64,000 nt of DNA from Escherichia coli 042 (lineage in GTDB: Bacteria; Pseudomonadota; Gammaproteobacteria; Enterobacterales; Enterobacteriaceae). Where the stretch lies: NCBI RefSeq assembly GCF_000027125.1, contig NC_017626.1. One strand, given 5' to 3'. Below the pieces are notes generated by a model, which made no database searches, was not told the DNA's origin, and saw nothing but the letters and a program-made list of their open reading frames with translations. The first letter of the stretch is position 1; each line of letters opens with the position of its first letter. Shown here piece by piece: positions 1,812 to 58,236 of this stretch. The position numbers and the translations under genes were made by a program.

Positions 1812-1815
1812 AGAA

Positions 1816-4688: not shown

Positions 4689-5101
4689 TAGCGTTGATGA
4701 TTGTCCAGCAAAATGTCAAATTCAAACACTCCCCTGGTTTCGCTGACATCGACCGTAGCCACAATATGAAAACGTAGTTCCACAGGGGCGTATTCATCCG
4801 GTGCCGCAGCCGTAACAACAACATCGGTAATACGAGGTTCGTAATGTAAAATGCACTGGCTAATGGACTTACGGATTTCTCGTCTGAAATCGCTGGAGGC
4901 CAGCGATTCATCATTTAAATCAGTAATCCCCAGCTCTGGTGAGCCATAACAACTGCCGGAGCGGGTATTCAGGACCTGTCGCAGGTTACGTCTGATGGAA
5001 CGTATCAGTGCTTCTTTTGTATTCTGGTATGAAGGCGGGTTGGCCGCCTCACGAATACGTTCAAAAAGACTGCTGGTTGGCCCTGAATCCCGTCTTTGCA
5101 T
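4676..5101 (-). CDS. tssE: T6SS baseplate subunit TssE (gp25-like)
   Basis: 141-aa ORF immediately after tssC; gp25/GPW-like small protein by size and sequence character. Confidence 0.8.
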   Translation of the reverse strand: MQRRDSGPTSSLFERIREAANPPSYQNTKEALIRSIRRNLRQVLNTRSGSCYGSPELGITDLNDESLASSDFRREIRKSISQCILHYEPRITDVVVTAAAPDEYAPVELRFHIVATVDVSETRGVFEFDILLDNHQRYCVE

Positions 5102-5105
5102 CTGA

Positions 5106-6590: not shown

Positions 6591-6612
6591 ACTGAAAATC
6601 CTTCTGTGAAAA

Positions 6613-7116
6613 TTATTTCTGAGCGGCGATACCCAGTTCTTGGATCAGCTGCTCGCGGCTGTCTTCGTTTTCCAGTAGCGCCTGAAGTTGTGCGCGGAAG
6701 GCCGGAATATTGCCTAGTGGAGACTTAAGTGCGACCAGAGCTTCACGCAATTCGAGCAGACGTTTTATTTCTGGTACCTGGCTGGCAATATGGTCCGGAG
6801 AAAGGTCATCCATAGATTTGACTTTCAGGTTGACGTACATTTGCTCATTGGGAGCGTCACTGAGTTCAGCCGGAACAACAAACTCCCGTTCAATGTCAGC
6901 TTCTGAAATGACTGCGTTGAGGTTATAGCGGTTGATAGCAATGGCAGTTCGCTCGTCCAACGGCGTGTTATCTGGTTTCCCTTTCAGATTGCCGGTGATC
7001 AATAAATTCAGCGGCAATTCGATATCAGCAGCCACCCCATCAACTTTTGGTGTATACCGAACGCTGATTCTTTCTTTCGGCGCGACACTGCCGCCATTGT
7101 TGTTCATTTTGCTCAT
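6613..7116 (-). CDS. tssB: T6SS contractile sheath small subunit TssB (VipA)
   Basis: 167-aa ORF, first gene of the minus-strand operon, divergent from hcp. Confidence 0.9.
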   Translation of the reverse strand: MSKMNNNGGSVAPKERISVRYTPKVDGVAADIELPLNLLITGNLKGKPDNTPLDERTAIAINRYNLNAVISEADIEREFVVPAELSDAPNEQMYVNLKVKSMDDLSPDHIASQVPEIKRLLELREALVALKSPLGNIPAFRAQLQALLENEDSREQLIQELGIAAQK

Positions 7117-7818
7117 AAAAATGTTCCCGTTCAGGCCATGAGCACAGCATTTTCGTACTGCATAAAAATACCGAAGATACCGTTTCAGTGGCAGTTAGAT
7201 AATGTAACCTTCCTTCTGTTGTGATCGGTATTCTACTCATGAAATAAAATATTAAAAGAACTATTTATATTTTAGAAAGAGATGTATTCTTCCTTGCTAA
7301 TATATTATAGTGAAATAAATTTTGGTATTTATAGACTTGATGAATATGATTTTACGGTCAATAAAATGCCATAATATATTGATTTATATGTATTTATTAA
7401 ATTTATTAATAAGTTTTATGTATGGTTTTATCAATTGATTAATTGCTGGCAATACATCATAAGGAATTCCTTTAAGGAATGTCTTAATTGCGTGCTGGAA
7501 CGATGGCTGAGTAAGTGTCGTAATAATTTGTTTTTGACGCGGCTGTGGATTTTTATGGGGGGAAGGATACGTTATGGATAATTCTGCTGTTGAAGTTGAT
7601 ATATTTTTAGCTTATGTGACCGTGTTCTGAAATTGACTAAAAATATATTTAAACACCATAAAAGAGTTTTTCAGTAGGTGCTAATTACGTGTGCCTGTAA
7701 CTCGAATAAAGAAAAGGGTGTGGTTCCTGATGTGAGCCGCATCACACTCTAACCCGTCGGGGATTAACGACGGGTTGTTCGTAAAACAGCAGTTGATAAT
7801 TTCACAAGGAGTTCATAA
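7117..7818. promoter_or_regulatory. AT-rich ~700 bp divergent control region between tssB and hcp
   Basis: No credible ORF; very low GC compared with flanking genes; contains a single GATC (about 7224) and the palindrome AAGGAATTCCTT (about 7463-7474); must hold promoters for both divergent operons. Confidence 0.5.
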
Positions 7819-8337
7819 ATGCCAACCCCATGTTACATTTCAATTACAGGTCAGACCCAGGGGAACATCACTGCCGGTGCTTTCACCGCAGATTCTGTCG
7901 GCAATATCTACGTGCAGGGACACGAAGATGAAATGCTGGTGCAGGAGTTTCTGCATAACGTTACTGTTCCAACCGATCCACAGTCTGGTCAACCTTCCGG
8001 GCAGCGCGCGCACAAACCGTTCATTTTCACCGTGGCGCTGAACAAAGCCGTTCCGCTGCTGTACAACGCGCTGGCCTCCGGTGAAATGCTGCCGAAAGTG
8101 GAGCTGCACTGGTGGCGTACTTCAGTTGAAGGCAAGCAGGAGCACTACTTCACCACACGTCTTACTGACGCGACGATTGTGGACATGAACCTGCACATGC
8201 CGCACTGCCAGGACCCTGCACAGCGTGAGTTTACGCAATTGCTCGCAGTATCACTGGCATACCGTAAGGTTGAGTGGGAGCACATCAAATCCGGTACTTC
8301 TGGTGCCGATGACTGGCGTGCACCGCTGGAAGCATAA
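7819..8337 (+). CDS. hcp: T6SS inner tube protein Hcp
   Basis: 172-aa ORF with Hcp-family character; RBS AAGGAG 8 nt upstream; strong terminator downstream. Confidence 0.9.
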   Translation: MPTPCYISITGQTQGNITAGAFTADSVGNIYVQGHEDEMLVQEFLHNVTVPTDPQSGQPSGQRAHKPFIFTVALNKAVPLLYNALASGEMLPKVELHWWRTSVEGKQEHYFTTRLTDATIVDMNLHMPHCQDPAQREFTQLLAVSLAYRKVEWEHIKSGTSGADDWRAPLEA

Positions 8338-8348
8338 ATCTGAGTCAA

Positions 8349-8385
8349 CAACATCCTGCCTTCGTGCAGGATGTTGTTTTTGTAC
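8349..8385 (+). terminator. Rho-independent terminator after hcp
   Basis: Stem ACAACATCCTGC / GCAGGATGTTGT with 6-nt loop followed by TTTTT. Confidence 0.6.
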
Positions 8386-8557
8386 GTGTAAAAAATGAGT
8401 GTCAGTAAGGAGTTACGCTTTCATGAGGGAGATGGCGGATGCCGGAAACCCGGGCGGTAGCGTACCTGAAAATGTAAAGATGAGTGTAACGCTGCACTGG
8501 CACCCTTTGCTGCATGGTAAGAATCATTTGGTCCGTGAATAAATCAGGGAGGTCATT

Positions 8558-10516
8558 ATGTCCTTAAAAGGTCTGCGCTTTACGCTGGAGATTGACGGCC
8601 AGGAGCCGGACACCTTTGCAGTGGTGCATTTCAGGTTAATCCAGAACCAGTCTTATCCGTTTGTGATGAGTGTGGATGTTGCCAGCGACTCTTTTATGCA
8701 GACGGCGGAGATGCTGCTGGAGAAGAAGGCGACGCTGACCATCTGGCAGGGCGTCATCCCGCTGCGTTATGTCACCGGCGTGGTGGCGGGTTTTGGCATG
8801 CAGGAGAACAATGGCTGGCAGATGCGTTATCACCTGCGTATTGAGCCGCCGTTATGGCGGTGCGGGCTGCGGCAGAACTTCCGTATCTTCCAGCAGCAGG
8901 ATATCCGGACGATATCGGCCACGTTACTGAACGAGAACGGCGTCACGGAGTGGACACCGCTGTTTTATGAGGACCATCCGGCGCGGGAGTTCTGTGTCCA
9001 GTACGGGGAAAGCGACCTGGCGTTTCTGGCGCGGTTGTGGGCGGAGGAGGGAATTTTCTTCTTTGAGCGGTTTGCGGCGGACAGTCCGGAGCAGAAGCTG
9101 ACGCTGTGCGACGATGTGGCGGGGCTGTCACAGGCGGGAGAGCTTCCGTTTAACCCGGACACATCGGCAGGAGCGGAGACAGAGTGTGTCAGTATGTTCC
9201 GTTATGAGGCGTATGTCCGCCCGTCGTCGGTGCAGAGCCAGGATTACACGTTTAAGGTGCCGGACTGGCCGGGGATGTATGAGCAGCAGGGTGAGAACCT
9301 GAACGGACAGCTGGAGCAGTATGAGATATTTGATTATCCGGGAAGGTTCAAGGATGAACAGCACGGCAAGGATTTCACGCTGTACCAGATGGAGAGCCTG
9401 CGCAGTGATGCGGAAAAGGCCACAGGGCAGAGTAATTCACCGAAGCTGTGGCCGGGAACGCGGTTTACGCTGACGGGGCATCCGCAGAAGATGCTGAACC
9501 GTGAATGGCAGGTGGTACAGAGTATTCTGTCAGGGGACCAGCCGCAGGCGCTGCACGGCAGCCAGGGGAGAGGAACCACGCTGGGAAATCAGTTAGAGGT
9601 GATACCGGCGGACCGGACGTGGCGTCCACGGCTGCAAAGCAAACCGAAGGTGGACGGGCCACAGAGCGCCATTGTCACCGGTCCTGCGGGAGAGGAAATC
9701 TTCTGCGACGAACACGGACGTGTGCGAGTGCAGTTTCACTGGGACAGGTATAACCCGGCAACGGAGGCGAGTTCATGCTGGGTGAGGGTGTCGCAGGCGT
9801 GGGCGGGGCCGGGATTTGGTAACCTGGCGATACCGCGCATCGGCCAGGAAGTGATTGTAGACTTCCTGAACGGCGACCCGGACCAGCCGATAATCATGGG
9901 GCGGACGTACCATGAGGACAACCGTTCGCCGGGGAGTCTGCCGGGGACGAAGACGCAGATGACGATACGGTCGAAGACCTATAAAGGAAGCGGCTTTAAT
10001 GAACTGCGGTTCGAGGACGCGACGGACAAGGAAGAAATTTACCTGCACGCACAGAAAAATATGCAAGTCGTTGTGCTGAACAGCAAGGATAAGCGGGTCA
10101 ACTATGACCGGACGGTCAGCATCGGGCATGATGAATCCCTGGTGGTGGCAAATGACCGGAAAGTGACGGTTGAAGGTAAACAGGACCATAAAACCACCAA
10201 AGACCATGTCAGCCTGACAGAGGGCAATCAGGGGCTGGAGGTGAAAGGCGATCTGGCACAGAAAATAAGCGGCGCGCTGGGTATCAGCGTACAGGGCGAT
10301 ATTGTTTTACAGAGCGACAGCAAAATCAGTCTGCGGGTGGGCGGTTCATTTGTGGTGATCCATTCCGGCGGCGTGGATATTAAGGGCGCGAAAATCAATC
10401 TTAACGGCGGAGGCAGTCCGGGAGACGTGATCCTGCCGATGCGCCCGGTGATCCTGAAAGCCGCAGCCGGAAGCGGGACAATGTTTGTGGCGCACTGCCC
10501 GAAGGAGGATAAGTGA
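8558..10516 (+). CDS. vgrG: T6SS spike protein VgrG (core gp27/gp5-like, no long C-terminal extension)
   Basis: 652-aa ORF with VgrG character including the C-terminal repetitive beta-helix region (VVLNSKDKRVNYDRTVSIGHDESLVVANDRKVTVEG...). Confidence 0.9.
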   Translation: MSLKGLRFTLEIDGQEPDTFAVVHFRLIQNQSYPFVMSVDVASDSFMQTAEMLLEKKATLTIWQGVIPLRYVTGVVAGFGMQENNGWQMRYHLRIEPPLWRCGLRQNFRIFQQQDIRTISATLLNENGVTEWTPLFYEDHPAREFCVQYGESDLAFLARLWAEEGIFFFERFAADSPEQKLTLCDDVAGLSQAGELPFNPDTSAGAETECVSMFRYEAYVRPSSVQSQDYTFKVPDWPGMYEQQGENLNGQLEQYEIFDYPGRFKDEQHGKDFTLYQMESLRSDAEKATGQSNSPKLWPGTRFTLTGHPQKMLNREWQVVQSILSGDQPQALHGSQGRGTTLGNQLEVIPADRTWRPRLQSKPKVDGPQSAIVTGPAGEEIFCDEHGRVRVQFHWDRYNPATEASSCWVRVSQAWAGPGFGNLAIPRIGQEVIVDFLNGDPDQPIIMGRTYHEDNRSPGSLPGTKTQMTIRSKTYKGSGFNELRFEDATDKEEIYLHAQKNMQVVVLNSKDKRVNYDRTVSIGHDESLVVANDRKVTVEGKQDHKTTKDHVSLTEGNQGLEVKGDLAQKISGALGISVQGDIVLQSDSKISLRVGGSFVVIHSGGVDIKGAKINLNGGGSPGDVILPMRPVILKAAAGSGTMFVAHCPKEDK

Positions 10517-11355
10517 TGGAAACGGCACCCGTGCAGTACGCCATTGTGGATGGCGCTGTGGAGGAAGGATTGCTGGATTTTCTGAACGAGGTGAATCCCC
10601 CGCACTGTTGTCTGTATGCAGAACCCATACAACTGGATCTGGTCGCGCTAGCCCCCTATCTCGTGGAAGTCGTTCCGGAGGTTGAAGCATGGCTGAGTGT
10701 TAAGGCGTCGCCATGGGGAATATATCTGACTTCTGAGTCATCCATGCGTGAGCTACAGCAACACTTCAGACGTTATCTGTGGGTTAGGATCCCCGAACAG
10801 GAGAAACCTGTTCTCATGCGATTTTATGATCCCCGGAATATATGGGTATTAGTGGAAGTTCTGACCCCCCGCCAGCGTCTTTCTTTTATCAGTCCCGTCA
10901 GACAGCTAAGTACCCGTTATGGTGAAGAATGTCGTGAGGATAATTTTTCTTCCGTCCGTCCCGCAGAAACTATGAATATAAGGGCAGAACGGCCATCACA
11001 ACTGACGCTGAGTTACAGACAATATAGCCAACTGGAACGAAAGGCACGGGATAATTATCTTGATATATTATCTGCATTTATCGAAGAAAATGTAGATAAA
11101 AACGGATGGGATGATTCATCAAAAGCTGAATCATCCCGAATTCTGGCAGAAGATTATTTCTCTTTTTGCCAGTCATTAAATATAGCAGATGATCGTTCCG
11201 TCAGAACAATGACGCTTATATTACTGAAAAAAAATATAATCGATCTCAGATATATTCCGGATGACTGGTATGAACAACTCAGCAATCAGTCATACCCGGG
11301 ACATATTCGGGTACATGAACTTGCACAACAGGAACTGGGATTTATCCCACAATAA
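10516..11355 (+). CDS. DUF4123-family T6SS effector adaptor/chaperone
   Basis: Start overlaps the vgrG stop; sequence character (YAIVDGA...LAPYLVE...LMRFYDPRN) matches DUF4123 adaptors that load cargo onto VgrG. Confidence 0.75.
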   Translation: METAPVQYAIVDGAVEEGLLDFLNEVNPPHCCLYAEPIQLDLVALAPYLVEVVPEVEAWLSVKASPWGIYLTSESSMRELQQHFRRYLWVRIPEQEKPVLMRFYDPRNIWVLVEVLTPRQRLSFISPVRQLSTRYGEECREDNFSSVRPAETMNIRAERPSQLTLSYRQYSQLERKARDNYLDILSAFIEENVDKNGWDDSSKAESSRILAEDYFSFCQSLNIADDRSVRTMTLILLKKNIIDLRYIPDDWYEQLSNQSYPGHIRVHELAQQELGFIPQ

Positions 11356-11376
11356 AAAGACAAACGGATAGATTAT

Positions 11377-12948
11377 ATGACATCTCCATCTTCGACAGCC
11401 GGAAAGCCCTGTGTGGAATGCGGCATTCCTGATCCATGTATTTTTGATGTTATTAGTGATTTTCCAGAGGCCGGCGAGAAACATTTCTGGTCAAAAGAAG
11501 GAGTGGCGCGTTTTAAGCTACTGGATGATGGTTCCGGATGTGATGGTATAATTACCATTACCTACCAGTGCGATAAAAGTGGAACACATGAGGCATGGTT
11601 AGAGGAAGAATCAGAAAATAATCATAAGATACTGCAACCTTTCGGAATACCTAATAAGGTCACTTTGGATGATAACTTGTCTGAAGGTGAAATAATTGCT
11701 ATGGGTACATTTCGAGTACCATGGGATTATTTGGGGGCAATATCCTCTCCACTTAAGAATCATTATGAACCTGCCCATTATTCAGTCAGAATTGACAGTT
11801 GTTACGAATGTGGCAATTATGTTGAAATTGATGTTTATCCTACAGTGGAAATTAGGTTTACTACAGGGTTCAGCTATGAGATTTCGTCATCAAAACAGAC
11901 GAGAACAGTAAAAGAGCGGCGTGACGAAAGAATAAAAGCCAGGGACGCAATGGAGAACACCAAGCCCAGGGATAAAAATAAACTCCGTAGCGGCTGGACA
12001 AATACCACTGCTGAGTTTGAGTGGATAAACAAGACTTCCCTGACTGTCGATTTTGGCGTAAAAATAGCTAATGTTGAACACACAAGTGAATATGAAAAAG
12101 AGATAAAAAAACTTCGACAAACAAAGCAACTGGAACAGATAGGAAGAATTGACTCTCTGGTCAAGAATGTCAATAAATATTTTGCGCCAGATCCTGACAA
12201 TAATAATGGTACGCGCAAATATGCATTGTTCAGTGCAAAAATAGAACCCGTTAAACTGGGTATATCGTATGCCTATCAATATACCGATATCCAGGATGGC
12301 CCCTGTCATTTTTATGGTTTGTTTGGTGCCCCATTTTTTGAAGCGTCGTTCAGATTCGATATTATTTCATTTATATGTGCATATTGTAAAGTCGAGTCAT
12401 TGGTCAACAGATGTCGTGAATATCTCCGTAAAAACGGAGCCAGTGTTGAATGCTATATCGAGATTTCAGCGGAGATTAATCTTGATCTTGGCGCAGTATA
12501 CGCTGAAAAGGATAAAAAATGGGAGTTTAATGTAAAGGAAAGTAACATCAAGCTCGGTTTAAAAGGTGTGGTGAGTGCGACGTTTGAGGCGAATGTTTTT
12601 GTTGTACAACTGACCGCCGAAGCGACTGCCTCTATAGAAGCGAAAGCTGGATTTGGATTTGATTCACATGATGACGGACTGGACCTAGCATTATTTCATG
12701 ACGGCATTAAAGGGAAGTTTGAATTTAAGATTGATGTGTCTCATGGTGAAGTTGATGAAAAAGGAAAGGGGAAGGAAAAGAGCGAAAAACCTGAGAAGAA
12801 AGATACCGTTGAGTGGCAGTTATGTGATCCTATGGAGGTAAAGGATTCACCATTACGGGTTAATTTATACGGTAAAGAACGCACTGTGGAGAAAAAAGTA
12901 ACACCGCCGAAGCCAGTGACAACGTGGACGATAGGTATGGATTATTAA
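11377..12948 (+). CDS. Candidate VgrG-delivered T6SS effector, family not recognised
   Basis: 523-aa AT-rich ORF immediately after vgrG and DUF4123; Cys-rich N-terminus (CVECGIPDPC), Lys/Glu-rich C-terminus; no GxSxG or HxKxxxxD motif seen. Confidence 0.45.
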   Translation: MTSPSSTAGKPCVECGIPDPCIFDVISDFPEAGEKHFWSKEGVARFKLLDDGSGCDGIITITYQCDKSGTHEAWLEEESENNHKILQPFGIPNKVTLDDNLSEGEIIAMGTFRVPWDYLGAISSPLKNHYEPAHYSVRIDSCYECGNYVEIDVYPTVEIRFTTGFSYEISSSKQTRTVKERRDERIKARDAMENTKPRDKNKLRSGWTNTTAEFEWINKTSLTVDFGVKIANVEHTSEYEKEIKKLRQTKQLEQIGRIDSLVKNVNKYFAPDPDNNNGTRKYALFSAKIEPVKLGISYAYQYTDIQDGPCHFYGLFGAPFFEASFRFDIISFICAYCKVESLVNRCREYLRKNGASVECYIEISAEINLDLGAVYAEKDKKWEFNVKESNIKLGLKGVVSATFEANVFVVQLTAEATASIEAKAGFGFDSHDDGLDLALFHDGIKGKFEFKIDVSHGEVDEKGKGKEKSEKPEKKDTVEWQLCDPMEVKDSPLRVNLYGKERTVEKKVTPPKPVTTWTIGMDY

Positions 12949-13014
12949 GTGATATTACAGAAATTAAAAGTGAACAGTATAATGAGTATTTTCCCCTTTT
13001 GAGAGAGAATAATT

Positions 13015-14025
13015 ATGAAGGCAAAACATTTAATATCGGTTATTTTACTGTCAGGAGTTGTTATGGGAACTGGATTTTGCTCTAACGATAACCAGCAAAA
13101 AATTCGCAGTAAGTTTAATATTGAAGAGTCATATTGTGCCATTAAGACTAATGGCGTCCTCGGGTTCAGTAACCGAAGAAGTGCCTGGCGGGCAAATGGT
13201 GATTCAACCGGGGCCATATCCAGCACCAATGCCATGATGCTGATGGCGAATGGAGAAAATGAAATCAGTCTGGAGATTGGGGCATTAGGATGGTTTTCTG
13301 ACAAGCCTGCCAGTATGGAAGAACGGGGGCGTTTTTTTCCAAAAGCAGGATGCAGCCTGGATTTGGTTCGTTTTATTAAACAGGAGGAAACGCTGCTTTC
13401 TTCAATAAAAGTGACCATCAACCAGCAGGGCATACCTGAAGCCCGGCCAGACAGCGTGCATCCCGTTATCCGGAAAGAGATTTTGGCTGAGCAGGCGGAG
13501 CCAGGATTTATTGATCCAGATTATTTTGATGAAACCTATTTCCCGAAAGGGATGAAGGTGTATCAGTTCACTCAAAAAGTTACCGTGACAGGGCTTCCTG
13601 AATGGGCCTGGACGCGGGCAACCCCCTATACCGGAAGCGACGAGCAGTTACGGAAGTTAAAAGCCGCCTATACCGAAATGGCAAGCATCATCAGTAGCCG
13701 GGACAGGGCACGTCTGAAAGCTTATAACAAAGAGGCGCTGAAGGCATGGTCAGCCACAACCGGTGACTCTGAGGATGACATATTACTCTCACTCTTCTCA
13801 AAAGATAATGTGGAGGGAGGGAAAGCCAGAATGCAGCCCATCAGGTGGGACGATTATGCCGTCCGGGTTATGAATGGTGGACGTATGGTGCAGCTATATA
13901 ATAAATCGAAACCAATATATTCCCCACTGACTTACCGTTTTACAGATGAAAGTGGTGAAGAGCGTATGGGGTATTACGCTCCGGTATTTTCGCTGATTGA
14001 TGGTCAGTTTATCCCTGTTACTTGA
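13015..14025 (+). CDS. Exported protein, candidate cognate immunity protein
   Basis: 336-aa ORF with N-terminal signal peptide and a Cys after the hydrophobic core (MGTGFC); sits directly downstream of the candidate effector. Confidence 0.4.
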   Translation: MKAKHLISVILLSGVVMGTGFCSNDNQQKIRSKFNIEESYCAIKTNGVLGFSNRRSAWRANGDSTGAISSTNAMMLMANGENEISLEIGALGWFSDKPASMEERGRFFPKAGCSLDLVRFIKQEETLLSSIKVTINQQGIPEARPDSVHPVIRKEILAEQAEPGFIDPDYFDETYFPKGMKVYQFTQKVTVTGLPEWAWTRATPYTGSDEQLRKLKAAYTEMASIISSRDRARLKAYNKEALKAWSATTGDSEDDILLSLFSKDNVEGGKARMQPIRWDDYAVRVMNGGRMVQLYNKSKPIYSPLTYRFTDESGEERMGYYAPVFSLIDGQFIPVT

Positions 14026-14054
14026 TTAACCTGTTGGGCTACAAATCAGGATGT

Positions 14055-14098
14055 CCGGTAAGGTGATTATTACTGAGTTAAGCACCTTACCGTTTTTT
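14055..14098 (+). terminator. Rho-independent terminator after the effector/immunity pair
   Basis: Stem CCGGTAAGGTG / CACCTTACCG followed by TTTTTT. Confidence 0.55.
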
Positions 14099-14334
14099 AA
14101 ATTTTTTGTCGCTGATATTCCAGACAGGAAAACAATATGCCTTTAGCTGCCAGATTAAACGACAAAGGTACCGGCACAGGGAAAGATCACGTAACGCTGC
14201 TTTTTTGTACTAAATAATTCGCATTTTATGTTTAAAATTTGAGATATTCCTCATTACCTGAGGCTGTTTTTTATTACTTATACATGATCAAATACTCCTT
14301 ACATAATTAAGGGGAACAAAATGGAACTTAAAAA

Positions 14335-15262
14335 TTGATGGAACATATTTCTGTTATTCCCGATTACAGACAAGCCTGGAAAGTGGAACATAAATTGTCG
14401 GATATTCTACTGTTGACTATTTGTGCCGTTATTTCGGGTGCAGAAGGTTGGGAAGATATAGAGGATTTTGGGGAAACACATCTCGATTTTTTAAAACAAT
14501 ACGGTGATTTTGAAAATGGTATTCCTGTTCACGATACCATCGCCAGAGTTGTATCCTGTATCAGTCCTGCAAAATTTCACGAGTGCTTTATTAACTGGAT
14601 GCGAGATTGCCATACTTCAGATGATAAAGACGTCATCGCAATTGATGGAAAAACGCTCCGGCACTCTTATGACAAGAGTCGCCGCAGGGGAGCGATTCAT
14701 GTCATTAGTGCGTTCTCAACAATGCACAGCCTGGTCATCGGACAGATCAAGACGGATGAGAAATCCAATGAGATTACAGCTATCCCAGAACTTCTTAACA
14801 TGCTGGATATTAAAGGAAAAATCATCACAACTGATGCGATGGGTTGCCAGAAAGATATTGCAGAGAAGATACAAAAACAGGGCGGTGATTATTTATTCGC
14901 TGTAAAAGGAAATCAGGGGCGGCTTAATAAAGCCTTTGAGGAAAAATTCCCACTGAAAGAATTAAATAATCCAGAGCATGACAGTTACGCAATGAGTGAA
15001 AAGAGTCACGGCAGAGAAGAAATCCGTCTTCATATTGTTTGCGATGTCCCTGATGAACTTATTGATTTCACGTTTGAATGGAAAGGACTGAAGAAATTAT
15101 GCGTGGCAGTCTCCTTTCGGTCCATAATAGCAGAACAAAAGAAAGAGCCAGAAATGACGGTCAGATATTATATCAGTTCTGCTGATTTAACCGCAGAGAA
15201 GTTCGCCACAGCAATCCGAAACCACTGGCACGTGGAGAATAAGCTGCACTGGCGTCTGGACG
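14335..15262 (+). CDS. ISAs1-family transposase, exon 1 (reading frame interrupted by the group II intron)
   Basis: Near-identical to the intact copy-B transposase up to ...HWRLD; one base fewer than copy B in the A-run near the start codon region. Confidence 0.8.
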
Positions 15263-17153
15263 GTGTGCCGCAGGAACACAAGATAGCTGCATAAGGATAC
15301 GCAGTTAGCTTTTGTATAAGCTCATAAAGAGATGGTGGAAGGCCCACCGGGATCGGCTGTCGGAAGCAGATTCCAAACCACTTCATGCTGCTGTGGTAAA
15401 GAGCCATGGTAGTGAGCGATGAAGTAAAGCGTGAGTGAAAACTCAGCAGGTAAGATACTCATGAGACGAGTGAACCCGAACCCATGTTGACGCGTCGTAA
15501 ACCAGAGACTGACATCAAAACCGAAGGGGCGTCCAGCCTTCGGGATAAGTCTGCGAGTGAATTCCGAATGCTGCGCAGACGGTGTCCGGCGTAAAGTGGG
15601 CGTGACGGAGTATCAGGCTCTTCCTGGGAACTGCGGGAACCTGTCGTTGTGATGATAAGGGAGAAATGCAAGTCACTGAATTGGCGAGCATGAAAGTACC
15701 GATGCACAGCACAGGGACGGAGCCGTTCGTAGTAGTGATGAAGCTTCTGTAATGGAGGTGGAGCGAAGGGGCGGCATCAGACAGTCTTTGGACAGTGTTC
15801 AACTGAACATGTTCAGGAGGAGACAATGACAAAGACAAAAGCGTTTAACATTGATAAGTCACTGGTGGTCAGCGCGTACAGGCGAGTGAAGACCAGTGCA
15901 GGCGCGGCGGGAATTGATAAGCAATCGCTGGCGGACTTTGATAAACGGTTAGTTGATAATCTGTACAAAATCTGGAACCGACTTTCTTCAGGAAGTTATT
16001 TCCCACCGGCAGTGAAAGCGGTGGCAATTCCGAAGAAATTGGGTGGAGAGAGAATTCTGGGTATCCCGACAGTCAGCGATCGTATCGCGCAGACGGTGGT
16101 AAAACTGGCCTTTGAGCCACAGGTTGAGCCACATTTTCTGGCAGACTCTTACGGCTACAGACCGAATAAATCGGCACTGGATGCTATAGGGGTAACGCGT
16201 AAGCGTTGCTGGTATTACGACTGGGTACTGGAATTTGACATCAAAGGGCTGTTCGATAACATCCCGCACGAACTGATAATGAAAGCCGTGGACAAACACA
16301 ATCCGGCCCGGTGGGTAAAATTGTATATACAGCGGTGGCTGACAGCGCCGATGGTGATGTCAGACGGAGAAGTCAGAGCACGAACAATGGGAACGCCGCA
16401 GGGAGGTGTCATAAGTCCGTTGCTGGCAAACCTGTTCATGCATTATGTGTTTGATAAATGGCTGGCAAAATATTATCCGAAAGTGCCGTGGTATCGATAT
16501 GCTGATGATGGCATTTTGCATTGTCACAGCGAAGCAGAAGCGACTGAAATGCGAGAAGTATTACGCAAAAGATTTAGCGAATGCGGACTGGAAATGCATC
16601 CGGAGAAAACGCGAGTTATCTACTGCAAAGATGGAAGCCGGAAGGGTGATTATGAACATACCATGTTCGACTTTCTGGGGTACACATTCAGGCGACGCGT
16701 AGTAAAGAACGTTAAGCGAAACAGTCTGTTTGTAAGTTTTACCCCCGCAGCGAGCAAATCAGCGCTAAAGGCAATGCGTCGGGAAATCAAAGCGACAGGG
16801 ATAAGGAAAAGAGTGGATTTAAGCATTGAGCAGATAGCGAAATGGATAAATCCAAAACTGAATGGCTGGATAAATTATTACGGGCGATATACCTGTTCGG
16901 AATTATACAGCGTGTTCAGATATATCAATAAAGCACTGGTGAGGTGGGGGCGTAAGAAATATAAAATGCTCAGCCGATACAAGACAAGAGCCTCAAAATT
17001 TCTGGAAGAAATGGCGAAGCGAAGTCCACAGTTGTTTGCCCACTGGCGTCTGAAGATGAGAGGCGGACTTGTTTGATGGGAGCGGTATGAGCCGAGAGGT
17101 TCACGTACCGTTCTGCGAGAGGCTGCGGGGGAGGTTCCTGCGGCCTACTCACC
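15263..17153 (+). mobile_element. Group II intron, same orientation as the host transposase gene
   Basis: Exactly fills the gap between the copy-A junction CTGGACG|TGGTAATG and the uninterrupted copy B; starts GTGTG; encodes an RT/maturase; a domain V-like hairpin (GAGCCGAGAGGTTCACGTACCGTTC) lies near the 3' end. Confidence 0.8.
15826..17076 (+). CDS. Group II intron-encoded reverse transcriptase/maturase
   Basis: 416-aa ORF with RT motifs ([10 protein letters not shown], the YADD box in [12 protein letters not shown]) and a C-terminal maturase-like region. Confidence 0.9.
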
Positions 17154-17347
17154 TGGTAATGAATGAAGACGACTGCAAAATAAGAAGAGGAAATGCAGCA
17201 GAATTATTTTCAGGGATACGGCACATCGCTATTAATATTTTGACGAATGATAAGGTATTCAAGGCAGGGTTAAGACGTAAGATGCGAAAAGCAGCCATGG
17301 ACAGAAACTATCTGGCGTCAGTCCTTGCGGGGTGCGGGCTTTCGTAA
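17154..17347 (+). CDS. ISAs1-family transposase, exon 2 (C-terminal segment)
   Basis: Translation [64 protein letters not shown] matches the C-terminus of copy B. Confidence 0.75.
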
Positions 17348-17378
17348 TCTTTCCCTGGATGTGAAAAGCAGCTGCGGA

Positions 17379-18669
17379 CAGGGAAAGATCATCAGAAGTA
17401 CACTTTTTGTACTAAACAATTCGCATTTTATGTTTAAAAATTGAGATATTCCTCATTACCTGAAGCTGTTTTTTATTGCTTATACATGATCAAATACTCC
17501 TTACATAATTAAGGAGAACAAAATGGAACTTAAAAAATTGATGGAGCATATTTCTATTATCCCCGATTACAGACAAGCCTGGAAAGTGGAACATAAATTA
17601 TCGGATATTCTACTGTTGACTATTTGTGCCGTTATTTCTGGTGCAGAAGGTTGGGAAGATATAGAGGATTTTGGGGAAACACATCTCGATTTTTTGAAGC
17701 AATATGGTGATTTTGATAATGGTATTCCTGTTCACGATACCATTGCCAGAGTTGTATCCTGTATCAGTCCTGCAAAATTTCACGAGTGCTTTATTAACTG
17801 GATGCGTGACTGCCATTCTTCAGATGATAAAGACGTCATTGCAATTGATGGAAAAACGCTCCGACACTCTTATGACAAGAGTCGCCGCAGGGGAGCGATT
17901 CATGTCATTAGTGCGTTCTCAACAATGCACAGCCTGGTCATCGGACAGATCAGGACGGATGAGAAATCTAATGAGATTACAGCTATCCCTGAACTTATTA
18001 ACATGCTGGATATTAAAGGAAAAATCATCACAACTGATGCGATGGGTTGCCAGAAAGATATTGCAGAGAAGATACAAAAACAGGGAGGTGATTATTTATT
18101 CGCTGTAAAAGGAAACCAGGGGCGGCTAAATAAAGCCTTCGAGGAAAAATTTCTGCTGAAAGAATTAAATAATCCAGAGCATGACAGTTACGCAATTAGT
18201 GAAAAGAGTCACGGCAGAGAAGAAATCCGTCTTCACATTGTTTGCGATGTCCCTGATGAACTTATTGATTTCACGTTTGAATGGAAAGGTCTGAAGAAAT
18301 TATGCGTGGCAGTCTCCTTTCGGTCAATAATAGCAGAACAAAAGAAAGAGCCCCAAATGACGGTCAGATATTATATCAGTTCTGCTGATTTAACCGCAGA
18401 GAAGTTCGCCACAGCAATCCGAAACCACTGGCACGTGGAGAATAAGCTGCACTGGCGTCTGGACGTGGTAATGAATGAAGACGACTGCAAAATAAGAAGA
18501 GGAAACGCAGCAGAATTATTTTCAGGGATACGGCACATTGCTATTAATATTTTGACGAATGATAAGGTATTCAAGGCAGGGTTAAGACGTAAGATGCGAA
18601 AAGCAGCCATGGACAGAAACTACCTGGCGTCAGTCCTTGCGGGGAGCGGGCTTTCGTAATCTTGCCCTG
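17379..18669 (+). mobile_element. ISAs1-family (H-repeat) insertion sequence, copy B (intact)
   Basis: Same terminal inverted repeats as copy A; single uninterrupted transposase ORF. Confidence 0.8.
17523..18659 (+). CDS. ISAs1-family (H-repeat-associated) transposase
   Basis: 378-aa ORF; recognised H-repeat protein family. Confidence 0.9.
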
Positions 18670-18778
18670 GTACAGTAAACAAACGAAAGTTGTTATTTCA
18701 ATGGTCAGGGCAAGAGCATGAAGTGTTTACTACACACTATGCTCTTGTCCTGGAGTCAGGTCTTGTTTGGAGGGATAA

Positions 18779-19282
18779 ATGGTAGATATTGTCGAGGCCG
18801 ATAAAACGGATATTTATTTCATTCAGGAGAGTGTTTATGGCAAAATCGGGTTGCCAGCTTTTGGTAATACAATAGGACCATCCGCACAGCAAGTTGTTAA
18901 AAAGGTATTCGCTGTCGTTAAAGAACGAGATAAGACACATGCAAAACAGAGATTATTGTTGGAATATAATGGTAACAAACTCTGGATGAATGCTATTGAT
19001 GGCAGTGAAGCTATCCTACCAACAGAATTTTCTAAGCGATACGAACTTTCATTATTTAATACTACTAATTTTGGAGAAGATCCTTTTCCTGATGTTAATT
19101 TATATAATAATATGAAATCAAGTTTTTTTGTAAGGTTTGGTGGAACATCCCATCCCGAGGCTTGGGCTATTTATAATGCAAGTACGAAAGAGGTTAAATA
19201 TATAGAAACTGCAAGAGAAATTGATAAAATATTCAGTGATTTTAACTTGAGTGGTACATTGCCAATTCACATTGGTCGATGA
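18779..19282 (+). CDS. Hypothetical protein (AT-rich orphan ORF)
   Basis: 167-aa ORF in a low-GC segment between the IS copies and the IS remnant; no recognisable motif. Confidence 0.3.
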   Translation: MVDIVEADKTDIYFIQESVYGKIGLPAFGNTIGPSAQQVVKKVFAVVKERDKTHAKQRLLLEYNGNKLWMNAIDGSEAILPTEFSKRYELSLFNTTNFGEDPFPDVNLYNNMKSSFFVRFGGTSHPEAWAIYNASTKEVKYIETAREIDKIFSDFNLSGTLPIHIGR

Positions 19283-19348
19283 TTTTTTAAATTGTGTGAT
19301 TAAATAATTGAACATTAATGATGATTTATAGCATTATTATTCTATAAC

Positions 19349-19861
19349 ATGAATAAACGGATTGAATGTGTTATGTTAAAAATAAGTTTATACGTAATAA
19401 TATTGTTATTTTCCTTTCAGATTAGTGCAGCCATTACTAGCAAGGAAAGTGAGGTTGTTTCACCATTATTAATGGATGTTAATTCTTCACTAACAATGGA
19501 AAATATTTCTGAATTATCCACATCATCGGAACCATCGCAACAGGGGGTATTTCCTGTAATATGTACTCGACTTCATCCTGGCTCCGTAATGAAACGCCAG
19601 TTATTAACCGGCTGGGGGCCTGTTTTTATAATTGGTGATGATCCTTTTTCTCTGCGCTGGATGAGTGAACATCTGGAGATCCTTAAATCGCTAAATGCCC
19701 TTGGTTTGGTTGTTAATGTTGAATCAGTAGAACGAATGGAGGTATTACAGCAGCGGGCTGATGGGTTATTGTTATTGCCAGTTATCTGCGATAATTTCGT
19801 GCAAACTCTGCAATTAAATGCTTATCCGGTATTAATCACAGAGATGGAAATATCACAATGA
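19349..19861 (+). CDS. Hypothetical secreted protein; C-terminal motif resembles an integrating-conjugative-element protein family
   Basis: 170-aa ORF with N-terminal signal peptide; FIIGDD...GLVVNVESVE...YPVLIT recalled as typical of the PFL_4695-type ICE protein family (from memory, unverified). Confidence 0.35.
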   Translation: MNKRIECVMLKISLYVIILLFSFQISAAITSKESEVVSPLLMDVNSSLTMENISELSTSSEPSQQGVFPVICTRLHPGSVMKRQLLTGWGPVFIIGDDPFSLRWMSEHLEILKSLNALGLVVNVESVERMEVLQQRADGLLLLPVICDNFVQTLQLNAYPVLITEMEISQ

Positions 19862-19889
19862 TTAATAACATAATTACTGCAAATAATAT

Positions 19890-20105
19890 CGTAATTTTGA
19901 AAATGGTAATCCTGTTCACGGCACCATAATTAGAGTTATGTCTTGTATCCGTTCAGTATAATTTCACGAATGCTTTATTAACTGGATGCGAGATTGCCAT
20001 TCATCAAATGATAAAGACGTCATCGCAATTGATGGAAAAGCGCTTCCACACTCCTATGATAAAAGTGGTCGCAGGGGAGCGGGCTTTCGTAGTCTTAGCC
20101 CGACT
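19890..20105 (+). mobile_element. Internally deleted ISAs1-family remnant
   Basis: Transposase codons about 60-120 (ENGNPVHGTI...[24 protein letters not shown]) fused directly to the IS right end CGGGCTTTCGTAGTCTTAGCCCG. Confidence 0.6.
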
Positions 20106-24980: not shown

Positions 24981-25040
24981 AAAATACTTAAATCAATCTT
25001 CGCCGGGGGCCATGCGCTCCCGCTGTTGTGGAGGTTACCC

Positions 25041-25808
25041 ATGTGCGAATTGCTCGGGATGAGCGCCAACGTCCCTACCGATATCTGCTTTAGTTTCACC
25101 GGGCTTGTACAGCGTGGTGGTGGAACCGGGCCACATAAAGATGGCTGGGGCATCACCTTTTACGAAGGTAAAGGCTGTCGCACATTTAAAGATCCACAAC
25201 CCAGCTTTAATTCCCCCATCGCCAAACTTGTCCAGGACTACCCGATAAAATCCTGTTCGGTTGTGGCTCATATTCGGCAGGCCAATCGGGGCGAGGTGGC
25301 GCTGGAAAATACTCACCCGTTTACCCGCGAGTTATGGGGACGCAACTGGACTTATGCCCATAACGGGCAACTGACGGGCTACAAATCACTGGAAACCGGC
25401 AACTTCCGCCCGGTCGGTGAAACCGATAGCGAAAAAGCCTTTTGCTGGCTCCTGCATAAATTAACGCAGCGTTACCCGCGCACACCGGGCAACATGGCGG
25501 CAGTGTTTAAATATATCGCCTCACTGGCGGATGAACTGCGGCAGAAGGGCGTTTTCAACATGCTGCTTTCAGACGGGCGCTATGTAATGGCGTATTGCTC
25601 GACTAATTTACACTGGATCACCCGCCGCGCGCCGTTTGGCGTGGCAACGTTGCTGGATCAGGATGTGGAAATCGACTTCAGCTCGCAGACCACACCTAAT
25701 GATGTGGTCACGGTGATTGCGACACAGCCGCTGACGGGCAATGAAACCTGGCAAAAGATTATGCCAGGCGAATGGCGCTTATTTTGCCTCGGGGAGCGTG
25801 TAGTTTGA
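25041..25808 (+). CDS. yafJ: Class II glutamine amidotransferase-like protein YafJ
   Basis: Starts [19 protein letters not shown], the N-terminal Cys nucleophile type; recognised as YafJ. Confidence 0.9.
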
Positions 25809-26519
25809 TGCCAGCTGTGGTTGCACAACTTCGTGGCTTAACGGCTTGCTGACCACGTAACGGCCATTGACCACAGAAACGGTCGGTGGCTTACGGGTTT
25901 GCTCAAAGTAGTCGTAGCCCGGTTTCAGTTGCTCCCAGAAGTCCTTAAAGTTGGAATACTTATGGCGCTTCATATTAGCGTCGGTCATACGGAACGGGTA
26001 AATACTCACTTGCACGCTCGGCTGACCAAACACCAGCGCACCAGTAACGAACTGGAAGATCTCATCAATACCCTGATTGGTCATCGCGTAGCAGCCGATG
26101 GAAACACAATCGCCGTGGATCATCAGGTATTTCCCTTCATAACCATGCGCACGGTCATAGGCATTGGGGAATCCAATATTAATCGCTTTGTAGTAACGGC
26201 TGTCTGGTTTTAACTGATTACGCTGGACGCTATAAAACCCTTCCGGGCTTTTGAAATCGCCCTGACGCTGTTTTGGTCCTAAGCCGCCGGAATATTTACA
26301 GATTTTATAGCTGTCGAGCAGTTGATATTGCTCGCCCATTTTGACGTAGAGATCGAGCGTACGTTCTTCCTTGAAGATCTGGATGTAGACAGGGGATCCC
26401 ATCAACTGCTGCTTATACTCTTTGCTCACTGGCGTGGTCGAGCTACTGCTGCCCAGCAAACCGGCAAACGAAACGCACGGGATCAACAACATCGCAAGAA
26501 TTAATGCGATTTTACGCAT
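25779..26519 (-). CDS. yafK: L,D-transpeptidase-family periplasmic protein YafK
   Basis: 246-aa ORF with signal peptide; recognised as YafK. Confidence 0.9.
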
Positions 26520-26810
26520 ACTGCTTATTCCTTGATAAAACGGTTACACACGCCAGGACGGCAAAATGGATCCCAAATCGGAATAGTCTGGATTTGGAAG
26601 GCTCACATTATCACCAAAAGAGTTTTACGCAAGCCTGTCGGCGCAGGGTTTACAAATTTAGCACAGGGGCAGTTTTCATTAGTCCGAAAAGCGCATGTAT
26701 CATTTATTTCCTAAGATTATGAAACCTCAATAGTAATATGCAAATAAGCAATTAATAATCCCGTTTACTCCTCCGGTCTTTTAAAATTCTCCCCTTCATT
26801 CAGCCGGTTT

Positions 26811-27569
26811 ATGTCCTTCATGTCTTCGTTCTTTCACGGCAGATTTCTGCATCCAGGCGTGTTTTCGTTATGCGTTTTGCTCCCTTTACTCGCCAGCGCC
26901 ACCACATCACATATCTCTTTCAGCTACGCCGCCCGCCAGCGGATGCAAAACCGTGCGCGTTTATTAAAACAGTACCAAACCCATCTGAAAAAACAGGCCA
27001 GCTATATTGTGGAAGGCAATGCCGAAAGCAGAAAGGCGCTGCGCCAGCACAACCGCGAACAGATAAAACAGCATCCAGAATGGTTTCCTGCGCCGCTCAA
27101 GGCGAGTGACAGACGCTGGCAGGCGCTGGCGGAGAACAACCATTTCTTAAGCAGCGACCATCTGCACAACATCACCGAAGTGGCGATTCACCGCCTGGAG
27201 CAGCAGCTTGGTAAGCCTTACGTCTGGGGCGGCACGCGGCCCGATCAAGGCTTCGACTGTAGCGGGTTGGTTTTTTATGCCTACAACAAGATCCTCGAGG
27301 CGAAGCTCCCGCGCACGGCCAATGAGATGTATCACTACCATCGGGCAACGATTGTGGCGAATAACGACCTGCGCCGGGGAGATTTGCTGTTTTTCCATAT
27401 TCACAGCCGTGAGATTGCCGATCATATGGGCGTGTATCTGGGAGACGGTCAGTTTATCGAGTCGCCGCGCACCGGGGAAACCATTCGGGTAAGTCGGTTA
27501 GCTGAACCTTTCTGGCAGGATCATTTTTTAGGCGCGCGCAGGATTTTGACGGAAGAGACGATTTTGTAG
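26811..27569 (+). CDS. yafL: NlpC/P60-family peptidoglycan peptidase lipoprotein YafL
   Basis: 252-aa ORF with the NlpC/P60 catalytic Cys context (GFDCSGLVFYAY) and His (HMGVYLGDGQFIESP). Confidence 0.85.
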   Translation: MSFMSSFFHGRFLHPGVFSLCVLLPLLASATTSHISFSYAARQRMQNRARLLKQYQTHLKKQASYIVEGNAESRKALRQHNREQIKQHPEWFPAPLKASDRRWQALAENNHFLSSDHLHNITEVAIHRLEQQLGKPYVWGGTRPDQGFDCSGLVFYAYNKILEAKLPRTANEMYHYHRATIVANNDLRRGDLLFFHIHSREIADHMGVYLGDGQFIESPRTGETIRVSRLAEPFWQDHFLGARRILTEETIL

Positions 27570-27745: not shown

Positions 27746-28243
27746 ATGTCTGAATATCGTCGTTATTACATCAAGGGGGGAACATGGTTTTTCACGGTAC
27801 ATTTACGGAATCGTCGAAGCCAACTTTTGACCACCCAGTACCAGACACTCCGTAACGCCATTATTAAAGTTAAGCAGGCCAGACCTTTTGAAATTAACGC
27901 CTGGGTAGTTTTGCCAGAGCATATGCACTGTATCTGGACATTACCCGAAAGTGATGATGATTTTTCCTCTCGCTGGCGGGAGATTAAAAAGCAGTTCACC
28001 CATGCTTGCGGATTGAAAAATATCTGGCAACCGCGTTTTTGGGAGCATGCCATTCGCAATACAAAAGATTATCGCCATCATGTTGATTATATTTATATAA
28101 ATCCAGTGAAACATGGCTGGGTAAAGCAGGTGAGTGATTGGCCATTCTCAACGTTCCATCGCGATGTAGCGCGAGGGTTATATCCCATTGATTGGGCGGG
28201 AGACATAACGGATTTTAGTGCCGGGGAGCGTATTATTTTATAA
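27746..28243 (+). CDS. rayT: REP-associated tyrosine transposase RayT (TnpA-REP, YafM)
   Basis: 165-aa ORF with the IS200/IS605-like HxH region (LPEHMHCIW) and catalytic Tyr region; recognised as rayT. Confidence 0.9.
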   Translation: MSEYRRYYIKGGTWFFTVHLRNRRSQLLTTQYQTLRNAIIKVKQARPFEINAWVVLPEHMHCIWTLPESDDDFSSRWREIKKQFTHACGLKNIWQPRFWEHAIRNTKDYRHHVDYIYINPVKHGWVKQVSDWPFSTFHRDVARGLYPIDWAGDITDFSAGERIIL

Positions 28244-28247
28244 TTGT

Positions 28248-28665
28248 GCGCGGATGCCTGATGCGACGCAGGCGCGTCTTATCATGCCTACAAACTTGTG
28301 CCGGATCGGTGGGCCGGATAAGGCGTTCACACCGCATCCGGCAATTGTGCACCGGTGCCTGATGCGACGCTGGCGCGTCTTATCATGCCTACAAACCTGT
28401 GCCGGATCGGTGGGCCGGATAAGGCGTTCACACCGCATCCGGTAATTGTGCACCGGTGCCTGATGCGACGCTGGCGCGTCTTATCATGCCTACAAACCTG
28501 TGCCGGATCGGTGGGCTGGATAAGGCGTTCACACCGCATCCGGCAATTGTGCGCAGATGCCTGATGCGACGCTGACGCGTCTTATCATGCCTACAAACTT
28601 GTGCCGGATCGGTAGGCCGGATAAGGCGTTCACGCCGCATCCGGCAATTGTGCACCGATGCCGGA
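28248..28665. repeat. BIME/REP array (about four ~100-bp units) directly downstream of rayT
   Basis: Unit TGCCTGATGCGACGCTGGCGCGTCTTATCATGCCTACAAACCTGTGCCGGATCGGTGGGCCGGATAAGGCGTTCACACCGCATCCGG repeats with about 100-bp period. Confidence 0.85.
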
Positions 28666-28681
28666 TTCGCCCCAAAGGCCA

Positions 28682-30775
28682 TCAACTCAACGCCCCCATA
28701 ATCTTCAACTCCAGCTCATCCGGCACTTCGTTATACGACAGCACATGCAGACCCGGCGCAAACAACCTTGCATAACGCGCCAGCAAAGGACGCAGCTGCG
28801 GCGGCACCAGCAGCACAGGGGCTTTCCCCGCTGCTTTCATCTGCTCCTTCACCTGCGGCATCGTACTCTGGAACTGGTTGAGCATATTCGGGTCAACCGG
28901 CACGCTGTCGAGCATCACTTTGCCGGCCTGTTGCGCCTGATTCACCACATTGGTCAGCAGATTTTCCAGCTCATTATTCAGCGTATACACCGTCAGCTCC
29001 TGTTTGCGAACGAACGGATGGGTAATGCTGCGCCGCAGCGCCAGGCGCACATCGGCCGCCAGCAGAATATGATCTTTGGTCAATGTGCTACTGGCGACCA
29101 GCACAGTGGCGATGGTGACGATATCGCGCAGGGAAACGCCTTCGGTCAGTAATGCACGGTACACTTTCAGCAACTGGCTGTAATTGAGCGCTGCGCTCAA
29201 ATCTTCCGCCAGTCGCGGTGCCATCGACGACAAACGATTATGCAACTGCGTAATATCGTCATAGTTAAATAAATCAGGAATATAGCTGCGCACAATCTTA
29301 TTCACATGGGTGGCAATCACGCTGGCGCTGTCGATCACCTGATACCCCATATTCAGCGCCTTCGCTTTCTGCGCGGGCTGGATCCAGGTCACCGGCATCC
29401 CGTACGCCGGGTCGTTCCCCAGCACGCCGTCAATCTCGCCGTAGGTTTCGCTGGAGGGCAGGGCCATCAGTTTATCCGCCGGAATATCCGCTTCATCAGC
29501 CTTAATGCCATTGATGAAAATGGCGTACTGGCTGGGCTTGAGGCGGAAGTTTTCCCGAATACGGATCTCCGGCAGCAGCACGCCGTTGCCGTCGGAAATC
29601 ACCTGCCGCACGCCGCGAATCCGCTGGGTGAGCGGGTTACCTTGGGCTTTATCGACTAGCGCCACCAGCTTGTAGCCGAGGCTTAAGCTGATGGGCTCGA
29701 TCAGCGGAATGGTTTCCCAACTGACCTGTTGCTCGCTGGTTTCGGTGATGGTTCGGGTCAGCGTTTCGAGGCTTTTCTCCTCCGCCTCCGCCGCCTGCGG
29801 GCGTTTGCTCATCCGCCAGCCGGTAAAGCCAAGCAGGGCGCTGAACAGCAAAAATGGCAGATGCGGCATCCCCGGCACCACCGCCAGCACAAACATGATC
29901 CCGGTGGCGGTGTAGAGCACCGACGGGCTTGCCAGCAGCTGGTGGCGCACGTCATGGGCGATATCGCCGTTGTCGCTGACGCGGGTGACGATAATTGCCG
30001 CTGCGGTGGAGAGCAGCAGGGACGGGATCTGCGCCACCAGCCCGTCGCCGATGGTCATCAGCACATACTGCTGGAAGGCGGCGTCGGCGCTCAGGTTGTA
30101 TTTGAAGATGCCGATACAGACGCCGCCGATCAGGTTGATCGCCAGAATCATCATCCCGGCGATGGCGTCCCCGCGCACAAACTTCGATGCCCCGTCCATC
30201 GCGCCGTAGAAATCGGCCTCGCTGGCAACATCTTTACGCCGGGTTTGCGCCTGCGCCTGGTTGATCAACCCAGCGTTAAGATCGGCGTCAATCGCCATCT
30301 GTTTACCGGGCATCGCGTCTAAGGTAAAGCGGGCAGAAACCTCGGAAATACGCTCGGCCCCTTTGGTGACGACGATAAAGTTGATGATCATCAGGATGAT
30401 AAACACCACAAAGCCGACGACAAAGTTGCCGCCAATCACCACCTGACCAAATGACTCAATTACCTTACCCGCCGCGCCCGCGCCGAGATGCCCGTGCAGC
30501 AACACCACGCGCGTAGAAGCAACGTTGAGCGTCAGGCGCATTAAGGTGGTGATCAGCAAAATGGTCGGGAACAGGCTGAATTCCAGCGGCCTTTTCGCTG
30601 ACACCGCCACCAGCAGTACCATCACCGCCAGCACAATGTTGAAGGTGAACAGAATATCCAGCAGCGCAGGCGGCAGCGGCAAAATAACCATCGCCAGAAT
30701 ACACAGGATCACCAGCGGCACGCCGAGATTGCCGCCGCGCAGTAGCGCGAGGAACGATTTAGTTGTTTTCGCCAT
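28682..30775 (-). CDS. lfhA: Lateral flagellar export apparatus protein FlhA homolog
   Basis: 697-aa full-length FlhA-family ORF. Confidence 0.95.
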   Translation of the reverse strand: MAKTTKSFLALLRGGNLGVPLVILCILAMVILPLPPALLDILFTFNIVLAVMVLLVAVSAKRPLEFSLFPTILLITTLMRLTLNVASTRVVLLHGHLGAGAAGKVIESFGQVVIGGNFVVGFVVFIILMIINFIVVTKGAERISEVSARFTLDAMPGKQMAIDADLNAGLINQAQAQTRRKDVASEADFYGAMDGASKFVRGDAIAGMMILAINLIGGVCIGIFKYNLSADAAFQQYVLMTIGDGLVAQIPSLLLSTAAAIIVTRVSDNGDIAHDVRHQLLASPSVLYTATGIMFVLAVVPGMPHLPFLLFSALLGFTGWRMSKRPQAAEAEEKSLETLTRTITETSEQQVSWETIPLIEPISLSLGYKLVALVDKAQGNPLTQRIRGVRQVISDGNGVLLPEIRIRENFRLKPSQYAIFINGIKADEADIPADKLMALPSSETYGEIDGVLGNDPAYGMPVTWIQPAQKAKALNMGYQVIDSASVIATHVNKIVRSYIPDLFNYDDITQLHNRLSSMAPRLAEDLSAALNYSQLLKVYRALLTEGVSLRDIVTIATVLVASSTLTKDHILLAADVRLALRRSITHPFVRKQELTVYTLNNELENLLTNVVNQAQQAGKVMLDSVPVDPNMLNQFQSTMPQVKEQMKAAGKAPVLLVPPQLRPLLARYARLFAPGLHVLSYNEVPDELELKIMGALS

Positions 30776-58227: not shown

Positions 58228-58236
58228 GGAACGATA

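Follow-up and report, generated by a model that had tools for sequence, protein, structure and literature searches.

The dinJ-yafQ module is a type II toxin-antitoxin (TA) system that consists of a RelB/DinJ antitoxin and the RelE-like toxin YafQ, a ribosome-dependent mRNA interferase, with a LexA box in its promoter. In Escherichia coli K-12, the module is located between dpaA (yafK) and yafL, in the order dpaA/yafK, yafQ, dinJ, yafL, rayT. A sequence-only reading of the 64-kb stretch of E. coli 042 analyzed here (the window) had placed the module correctly, and had proposed that the genome lacks the module, since only a spacer of about 290 bp was seen between the two flanking genes. This raises the question of whether dinJ-yafQ is truly missing, what occupies its place, and whether the empty site reflects a loss or a lineage that never acquired the module.

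An empty site between dpaA and yafL

The genes around the site are arranged in the window as fadE (minus strand), lpcA/gmhA, yafJ (25026-25808, plus strand), dpaA/yafK (25779-26519, minus strand), the spacer, yafL (26820-27569, plus strand), rayT (27746-28243, plus strand), a REP array, and lfhA/flhA of the Flag-2 cluster (28682-30775, minus strand). The left flank of the site, dpaA, is an ORF of 246 amino acids with a Pfam YkuD domain, named in the RefSeq annotation of the uropathogenic E. coli strain 118UI as a YkuD-fold peptidoglycan meso-DAP protein amidase. The right flank, yafL, encodes an NlpC/P60 (C40) peptidase (Pfam NLPC_P60, E = 3e-33). Strain 118UI matches positions 6520-28393 of the window with 99.9% identity, and the approximately 1.5 kb surrounding the spacer is 100% identical between the two.

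Measured to the first ATG of yafL, the spacer covers 26520-26810 (291 bp), close to the earlier estimate. This ATG is not kept in other Escherichia, while the ATG at 26820 is the RefSeq start of yafL and aligns with the start codon across all relatives. The spacer is therefore better stated as 26520-26819 (300 bp). It had also been described as free of ORFs, which holds in the sense that no gene is present, but two mechanically called ORFs, 72 and 60 amino acids long (26504-26722 and 26532-26714, respectively), do overlap it. Neither of these matched any family in Pfam or NCBIfam, and no gene is annotated by RefSeq at the spacer in any of the matching genomes.

Remnants of the module were searched for in both the spacer and the 64-kb window with tblastn (word size 2, E up to 100) and blastn (word size 7), using K-12 DinJ, K-12 YafQ, and an 830-bp K-12 segment that contains both genes as queries. 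DinJ yielded chance matches only in tblastn, with E-values of at least 12 in the spacer and at least 6.4 in the window. For YafQ, the best tblastn match in the spacer had an E-value of 0.33 against a database of 441 bp, and those in the window had E-values of at least 1.4; blastn matches of the 830-bp segment were at chance level in both targets. In K-12, the dinJ promoter carries the LexA box CTGTATATTTATTCAG (position 3214 of K-12 locus L001), and no CTG-N10-CAG LexA site was found within 26520-26819. The site between dpaA/yafK and yafL is present, and its cargo is absent: a RelB/DinJ-family antitoxin ORF, a YafQ (RelE-fold) toxin ORF, and the LexA box are all missing, and no remnant of dinJ-yafQ aligns within the spacer. 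The empty dinJ-yafQ site is thus a confirmed observation, and the earlier interpretation of it is supported. That the assembly collapsed or omitted the TA genes can practically be dismissed, given that the same spacer recurs with 98.6-100% identity in many independent complete genomes, and the TA-less architecture in 2,082-2,084 genomes.

Two alleles related by replacement

Alignment with K-12 and with other genomes showed that the site is orthologous and that the window has 224 bp of other sequence where K-12 has the TA genes. In the global alignment with K-12, identity stays at 98.8% past the end of dpaA until 140 bp into the spacer. The breakpoints lie at 26659/26660 and approximately at 26883/26884 of the window, which correspond to 2640/2641 and 3470/3471 of the K-12 locus. 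These delimit a haplotype-specific segment (26660-26883, 224 bp), comprising the yafL-proximal part of the spacer and codons 1-21 of yafL. Its K-12 counterpart of 830 bp could not be aligned to it; this segment begins 15 bp past the yafQ stop codon and ends after yafL codon 21, and contains yafQ, dinJ, the promoter with the LexA box, the 209 bp that separate dinJ from yafL, and a yafL 5' end unlike that of the window. Identity between the window and K-12 is approximately 40% inside the segment, which is noise level, and rises to 96% just after it. The presence or absence of dinJ-yafQ is therefore a replacement rather than a clean indel.

This also modifies the framing of the difference as one of the spacer. 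The absence of the module was correctly placed there, but the polymorphism is not limited to the spacer, as yafL codons 1-21 belong to it as well. The window and the K-12 locus share the same site, the same dpaA/yafK and yafL flanks, and the 140 bp next to dpaA, whereas the window, besides lacking both genes and the LexA box, carries a different allele of the region that spans the yafL promoter and the codons of the signal peptide. Specifically, the signal peptide of YafL reads MSSFFHGRFLHPGVFSLCVLLPLLASA in the window and MSLPSIPSFVLSGLLLICLPFSSFASA in K-12, while the yafL body beyond codon 21 is 93% identical between the TA-carrying and TA-less alleles. A transposition-style insertion of the TA pair was considered as well and found no support, as no direct repeats or target duplications were found at the breakpoints.

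The two parts of the spacer differ in their conservation. The dpaA-proximal half (26520-26659), which presumably holds the promoter and 5' UTR of dpaA, is common to both haplotypes; it matches K-12 at 140 of 140 bases, and its identity to E. albertii and to three further Escherichia lineages is 93.6-97.9%. The yafL-proximal part contains an AT-rich element (26711-26750, with the pattern TGAA...TAAT...AATAA...ATTA) upstream of yafL, which is kept in both E. coli alleles, in other Escherichia, and in Citrobacter and Phytobacter, while its surroundings are not kept. The element may represent the promoter of yafL or a binding site for a regulator. Scans of the spacer for promoters and terminators returned two weak promoter-like sites only, along with trivial hairpins at the start of dpaA. 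An Rfam search of the spacer up to E = 1 gave nothing credible, the sole match being a miRNA model (E = 0.24) inside dpaA, and no repeats of note were found in the spacer.

Distribution of the two alleles among E. coli genomes

The locus is present in 5,424 of 5,426 complete E. coli genomes. The window-type segment of 224 bp was found in 2,084 of the 5,426 by blastn with a word size of 11, a search that gave zero matches in K-12-type genomes, and the K-12-type segment of 830 bp was found in 3,340 at megablast sensitivity. As these counts add up to exactly 5,424, the number of genomes with the locus, the two alleles appear to be mutually exclusive and exhaustive. Approximately 38% of complete E. 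coli genomes are without dinJ-yafQ.

The same counts bear on whether the module might reside elsewhere in the genome. The window covers 64 kb only, and distant DinJ/RelE-family pairs do occur on plasmids, so that a copy outside the window could in principle have gone unseen. However, the 3,340 matches of the K-12-type segment were counted anywhere in the genome, and together with the 2,084 window-type genomes they account for precisely the genomes with the locus. Window-type genomes thus appear to carry no dinJ-yafQ copy elsewhere at megablast sensitivity, and we consider such a copy very improbable.

Among the TA-less genomes, three sub-variants of the spacer were seen: one of 291 bp, with an identity of 98.6-100% to the window; one of 302 bp (approximately 94%), which includes ST131; and one of 303 bp (approximately 89%), in O145 strains. 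The TA-less dpaA-yafL regions of B2, D, and G strains of E. coli, of E. albertii, and of Citrobacter have the same architecture as the window and a homologous spacer. They differ from it by minor variants in length and sequence only, and nothing about the arrangement is specific to the window.

This distribution agrees with published surveys. González-Alba et al. (PMC6896753), who used phylogroup D for reference, counted yafQ-dinJ among the gained modules; every genome of the E/B1/A lineage has it, and phylogroup F is the only part of the F/G/B2 lineage that does. A survey of 950 genomes found YafQ to be prevalent in phylogroups A, B1, and F (PMC10790755). Following this literature, the TA-less class of E. 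coli would correspond to phylogroups B2, D, and G, and the window genome is placed in this class by its allele.

The TA-less state is probably ancestral

The direction of change was addressed with 80 loci around DpaA homologues, taken from one genome per species and including no E. fergusonii, in which neighboring genes were placed by tblastn. In E. albertii (L005), Escherichia sp. E1V33 (L004), a further Escherichia representative (L003), nine Citrobacter loci, and Phytobacter massiliensis, dpaA adjoins yafL without a TA pair. Among these outgroup loci, dinJ-yafQ is carried only by Escherichia sp. MOD1-EC7003 (L006), and most other Enterobacteriaceae loci have no yafL beside dpaA. Identity between the window-type segment and its counterparts in L003, L004, and L005 is 77-91%, in line with the 89-93% of the neighboring yafL body, so that it looks vertically inherited. 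Across the yafL-side spacer, identity to these three TA-less lineages outside E. coli is 87-91%, and the N-terminus of the window-type YafL (RFL-PG--SLCV-L) is similar to that of Citrobacter YafL.

Since the outgroups are TA-less and the window-type segment appears vertically inherited, the empty site is best read as ancestral, and the K-12 allele as derived. We infer that the window genome lacks dinJ-yafQ in the sense of never having acquired it, rather than of having lost it. Within E. coli, this direction follows from parsimony over few outgroups, and since the TA allele also occurs in L006, the polymorphism could be older than E. coli.

The presence of the pair in L006 also means that the TA allele is old enough to have been lost secondarily, through deletion or through recombination with an allele that has no TA pair, from an ancestor of this lineage that carried it; chromosomal TA loci are known to decay. 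Such a loss seems unlikely to us, as no remnant is left at either the DNA or the protein level, and the segment in the window is not a truncated form of the K-12 segment, but a distinct sequence of 224 bp with counterparts (77-91% identity) in E. albertii and two other Escherichia. In particular, a simple deletion cannot yield a 224-bp segment with a Citrobacter-like YafL N-terminus. Loss through replacement by a TA-less allele is indistinguishable in its outcome from never having had dinJ-yafQ. We therefore hold it highly probable that the interval is the divergent promoter region of dpaA and yafL in its ancestral, TA-less form, and that the K-12 allele is derived and was spread by recombination.

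Probable spread of the TA allele between Escherichia species

A comparison of K-12 with L006 bears on how the TA allele moved. The dinJ-yafQ genes (4304-4842 in L006 and 2656-3197 in the K-12 locus) are 98-99% identical between the two, and the flanking genes 89-96%. At the level of individual sites, yafQ and dinJ differ at 7 of 540, compared with 69 of 1,649 for yafJ, dpaA, and the shared spacer (Fisher p = 0.001 against the TA pair), and 110 of 1,184 for yafL and rayT (p = 8e-12). This suggests that the TA allele was transferred recently between Escherichia species, after its flanks had diverged.

A second question is whether the TA pair entered as a cassette or as part of a larger allele. 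The yafL 5' end of K-12 is itself distantly similar to that of Citrobacter, with 47-60% DNA identity and a similar signal-peptide pattern, so that neither allele is clearly foreign. Together with the AT-rich element that is found in all alleles and genera, this points to the 830 bp being a divergent allele of the same region. Under the mechanism proposed here, the 830-bp segment would have replaced 224 bp of ancestral sequence, bringing with it yafQ, dinJ, their LexA-regulated promoter, a divergent yafL promoter, and the first 21 codons of yafL. It would not have arrived by insertion of a bare cassette, but would have entered by homologous recombination with the TA pair already inside, and the TA allele would then have spread through Escherichia lineages by homologous recombination at the conserved flanks. 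On balance we lean towards such an allelic replacement, in which the TA allele came with its own yafL promoter and signal-peptide codons (approximately 40% identity over some 180 bp) and moved between species recently. A search of a plasmid collection returned no donor of the TA allele, only F-prime or chromosome-derived records and pairs of approximately 68% identity. The latter are DinJ/RelE-family pairs (approximately 68% DNA identity) on enterobacterial plasmids of about 40 kb, and such plasmid-borne relatives would fit a mobile origin of the TA pair.

A predicted HigBA-like pair and other features of the window

The suggestion that a different TA pair is present inside Flag-2 was borne out by domain searches. 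A gene for a Gp49/HigB-like toxin of the RelE/ParE superfamily (57883-58227, plus strand, 114 amino acids) matched PF05973 with E = 1.2e-20 and 73.8 bits, against a cut-off of 23.9. It is followed by an antitoxin-like gene with an HTH_3 (XRE-type) domain (58237-58536, plus strand, 99 amino acids; PF01381, E = 1.8e-12), which showed additional weak matches to HipB/MqsA-type antitoxins, under the curated cut-offs. The toxin gene comes first, with the adjacent gene on the same strand after a gap of 9 bp. In strain A10, RefSeq names the two products as a "type II toxin-antitoxin system RelE/ParE family toxin" and a "helix-turn-helix domain-containing protein".

The toxin-first order and the Gp49 and HTH_3 domains, as predicted from sequence, resemble those of HigB/HigA-type TA pairs. 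Unlike dinJ-yafQ, the pair has no significant similarity to DinJ or YafQ, YafQ giving tblastn E-values of at least 1.4 across the window. Its neighbors are lafW on the left (56833-57810) and lafZ on the right (58594-59487, minus strand), and the stretch between these two genes is known as VR2, the hotspot for cargo genes in Flag-2 loci of enterobacteria (De Maayer et al. 2020, PMC6993521). We thus regard 57883-58536 as a predicted, HigBA-like type II TA pair, carried as VR2 cargo.

In K-12, Flag-2 is reduced to an lfhA pseudogene, and the window genome apparently retains the full cluster. Positions 27500-52400 (24.9 kb, from the end of yafL over rayT into Flag-2, most of which is included) are covered for at least 80% in only 938 of the 5,426 genomes. 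Between rayT and lfhA lies a REP-like array (28240-28680), recognizable from its numerous short, overlapping ORFs, whose peptides are nearly identical (for example, MPDATLARLIMPTNL); at this position, strain 118UI has an ISEc31 insertion that is absent from the window. Further features were carried over from the annotation of 118UI (positions 1-13500 of its locus, L002) to approximately 6520-20000 of the window on the basis of the 99.9% identity. These include type VI secretion system genes (tssC, tssB, hcp, and a truncated vgrG), and an ISAs1-family transposase gene that is interrupted by a group II intron (ltrA).

Implications

The presence or absence of dinJ-yafQ and its distribution over lineages have been published before, and the empty site is an ordinary strain difference. 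A review noted that no TA system is common to four reference strains of phylogroups A, B1, E, and B2, citing earlier work in which chromosomal type II TA systems were unevenly distributed across phylogroups and horizontally transferred (PMC7167474). In the literature searched, no description was found of a TA module linked to a swapped yafL 5' end. The modest addition made here is the exact shape of the polymorphism, in which 224 bp stand against 830 bp and the exchange includes, besides the TA genes, the promoter region of yafL and the codons for its signal peptide.

The presence or absence of dinJ-yafQ is a sound lineage marker. The set of TA systems in K-12 is not species-wide, which bears on studies of persistence and stress that generalize from deletions of the K-12 TA systems. 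Comparisons of yafL expression or export between strains should allow for the difference in allele. If the allelic replacement is correct, E. coli strains with and without the TA pair would make YafL with different export signals and under different regulation.
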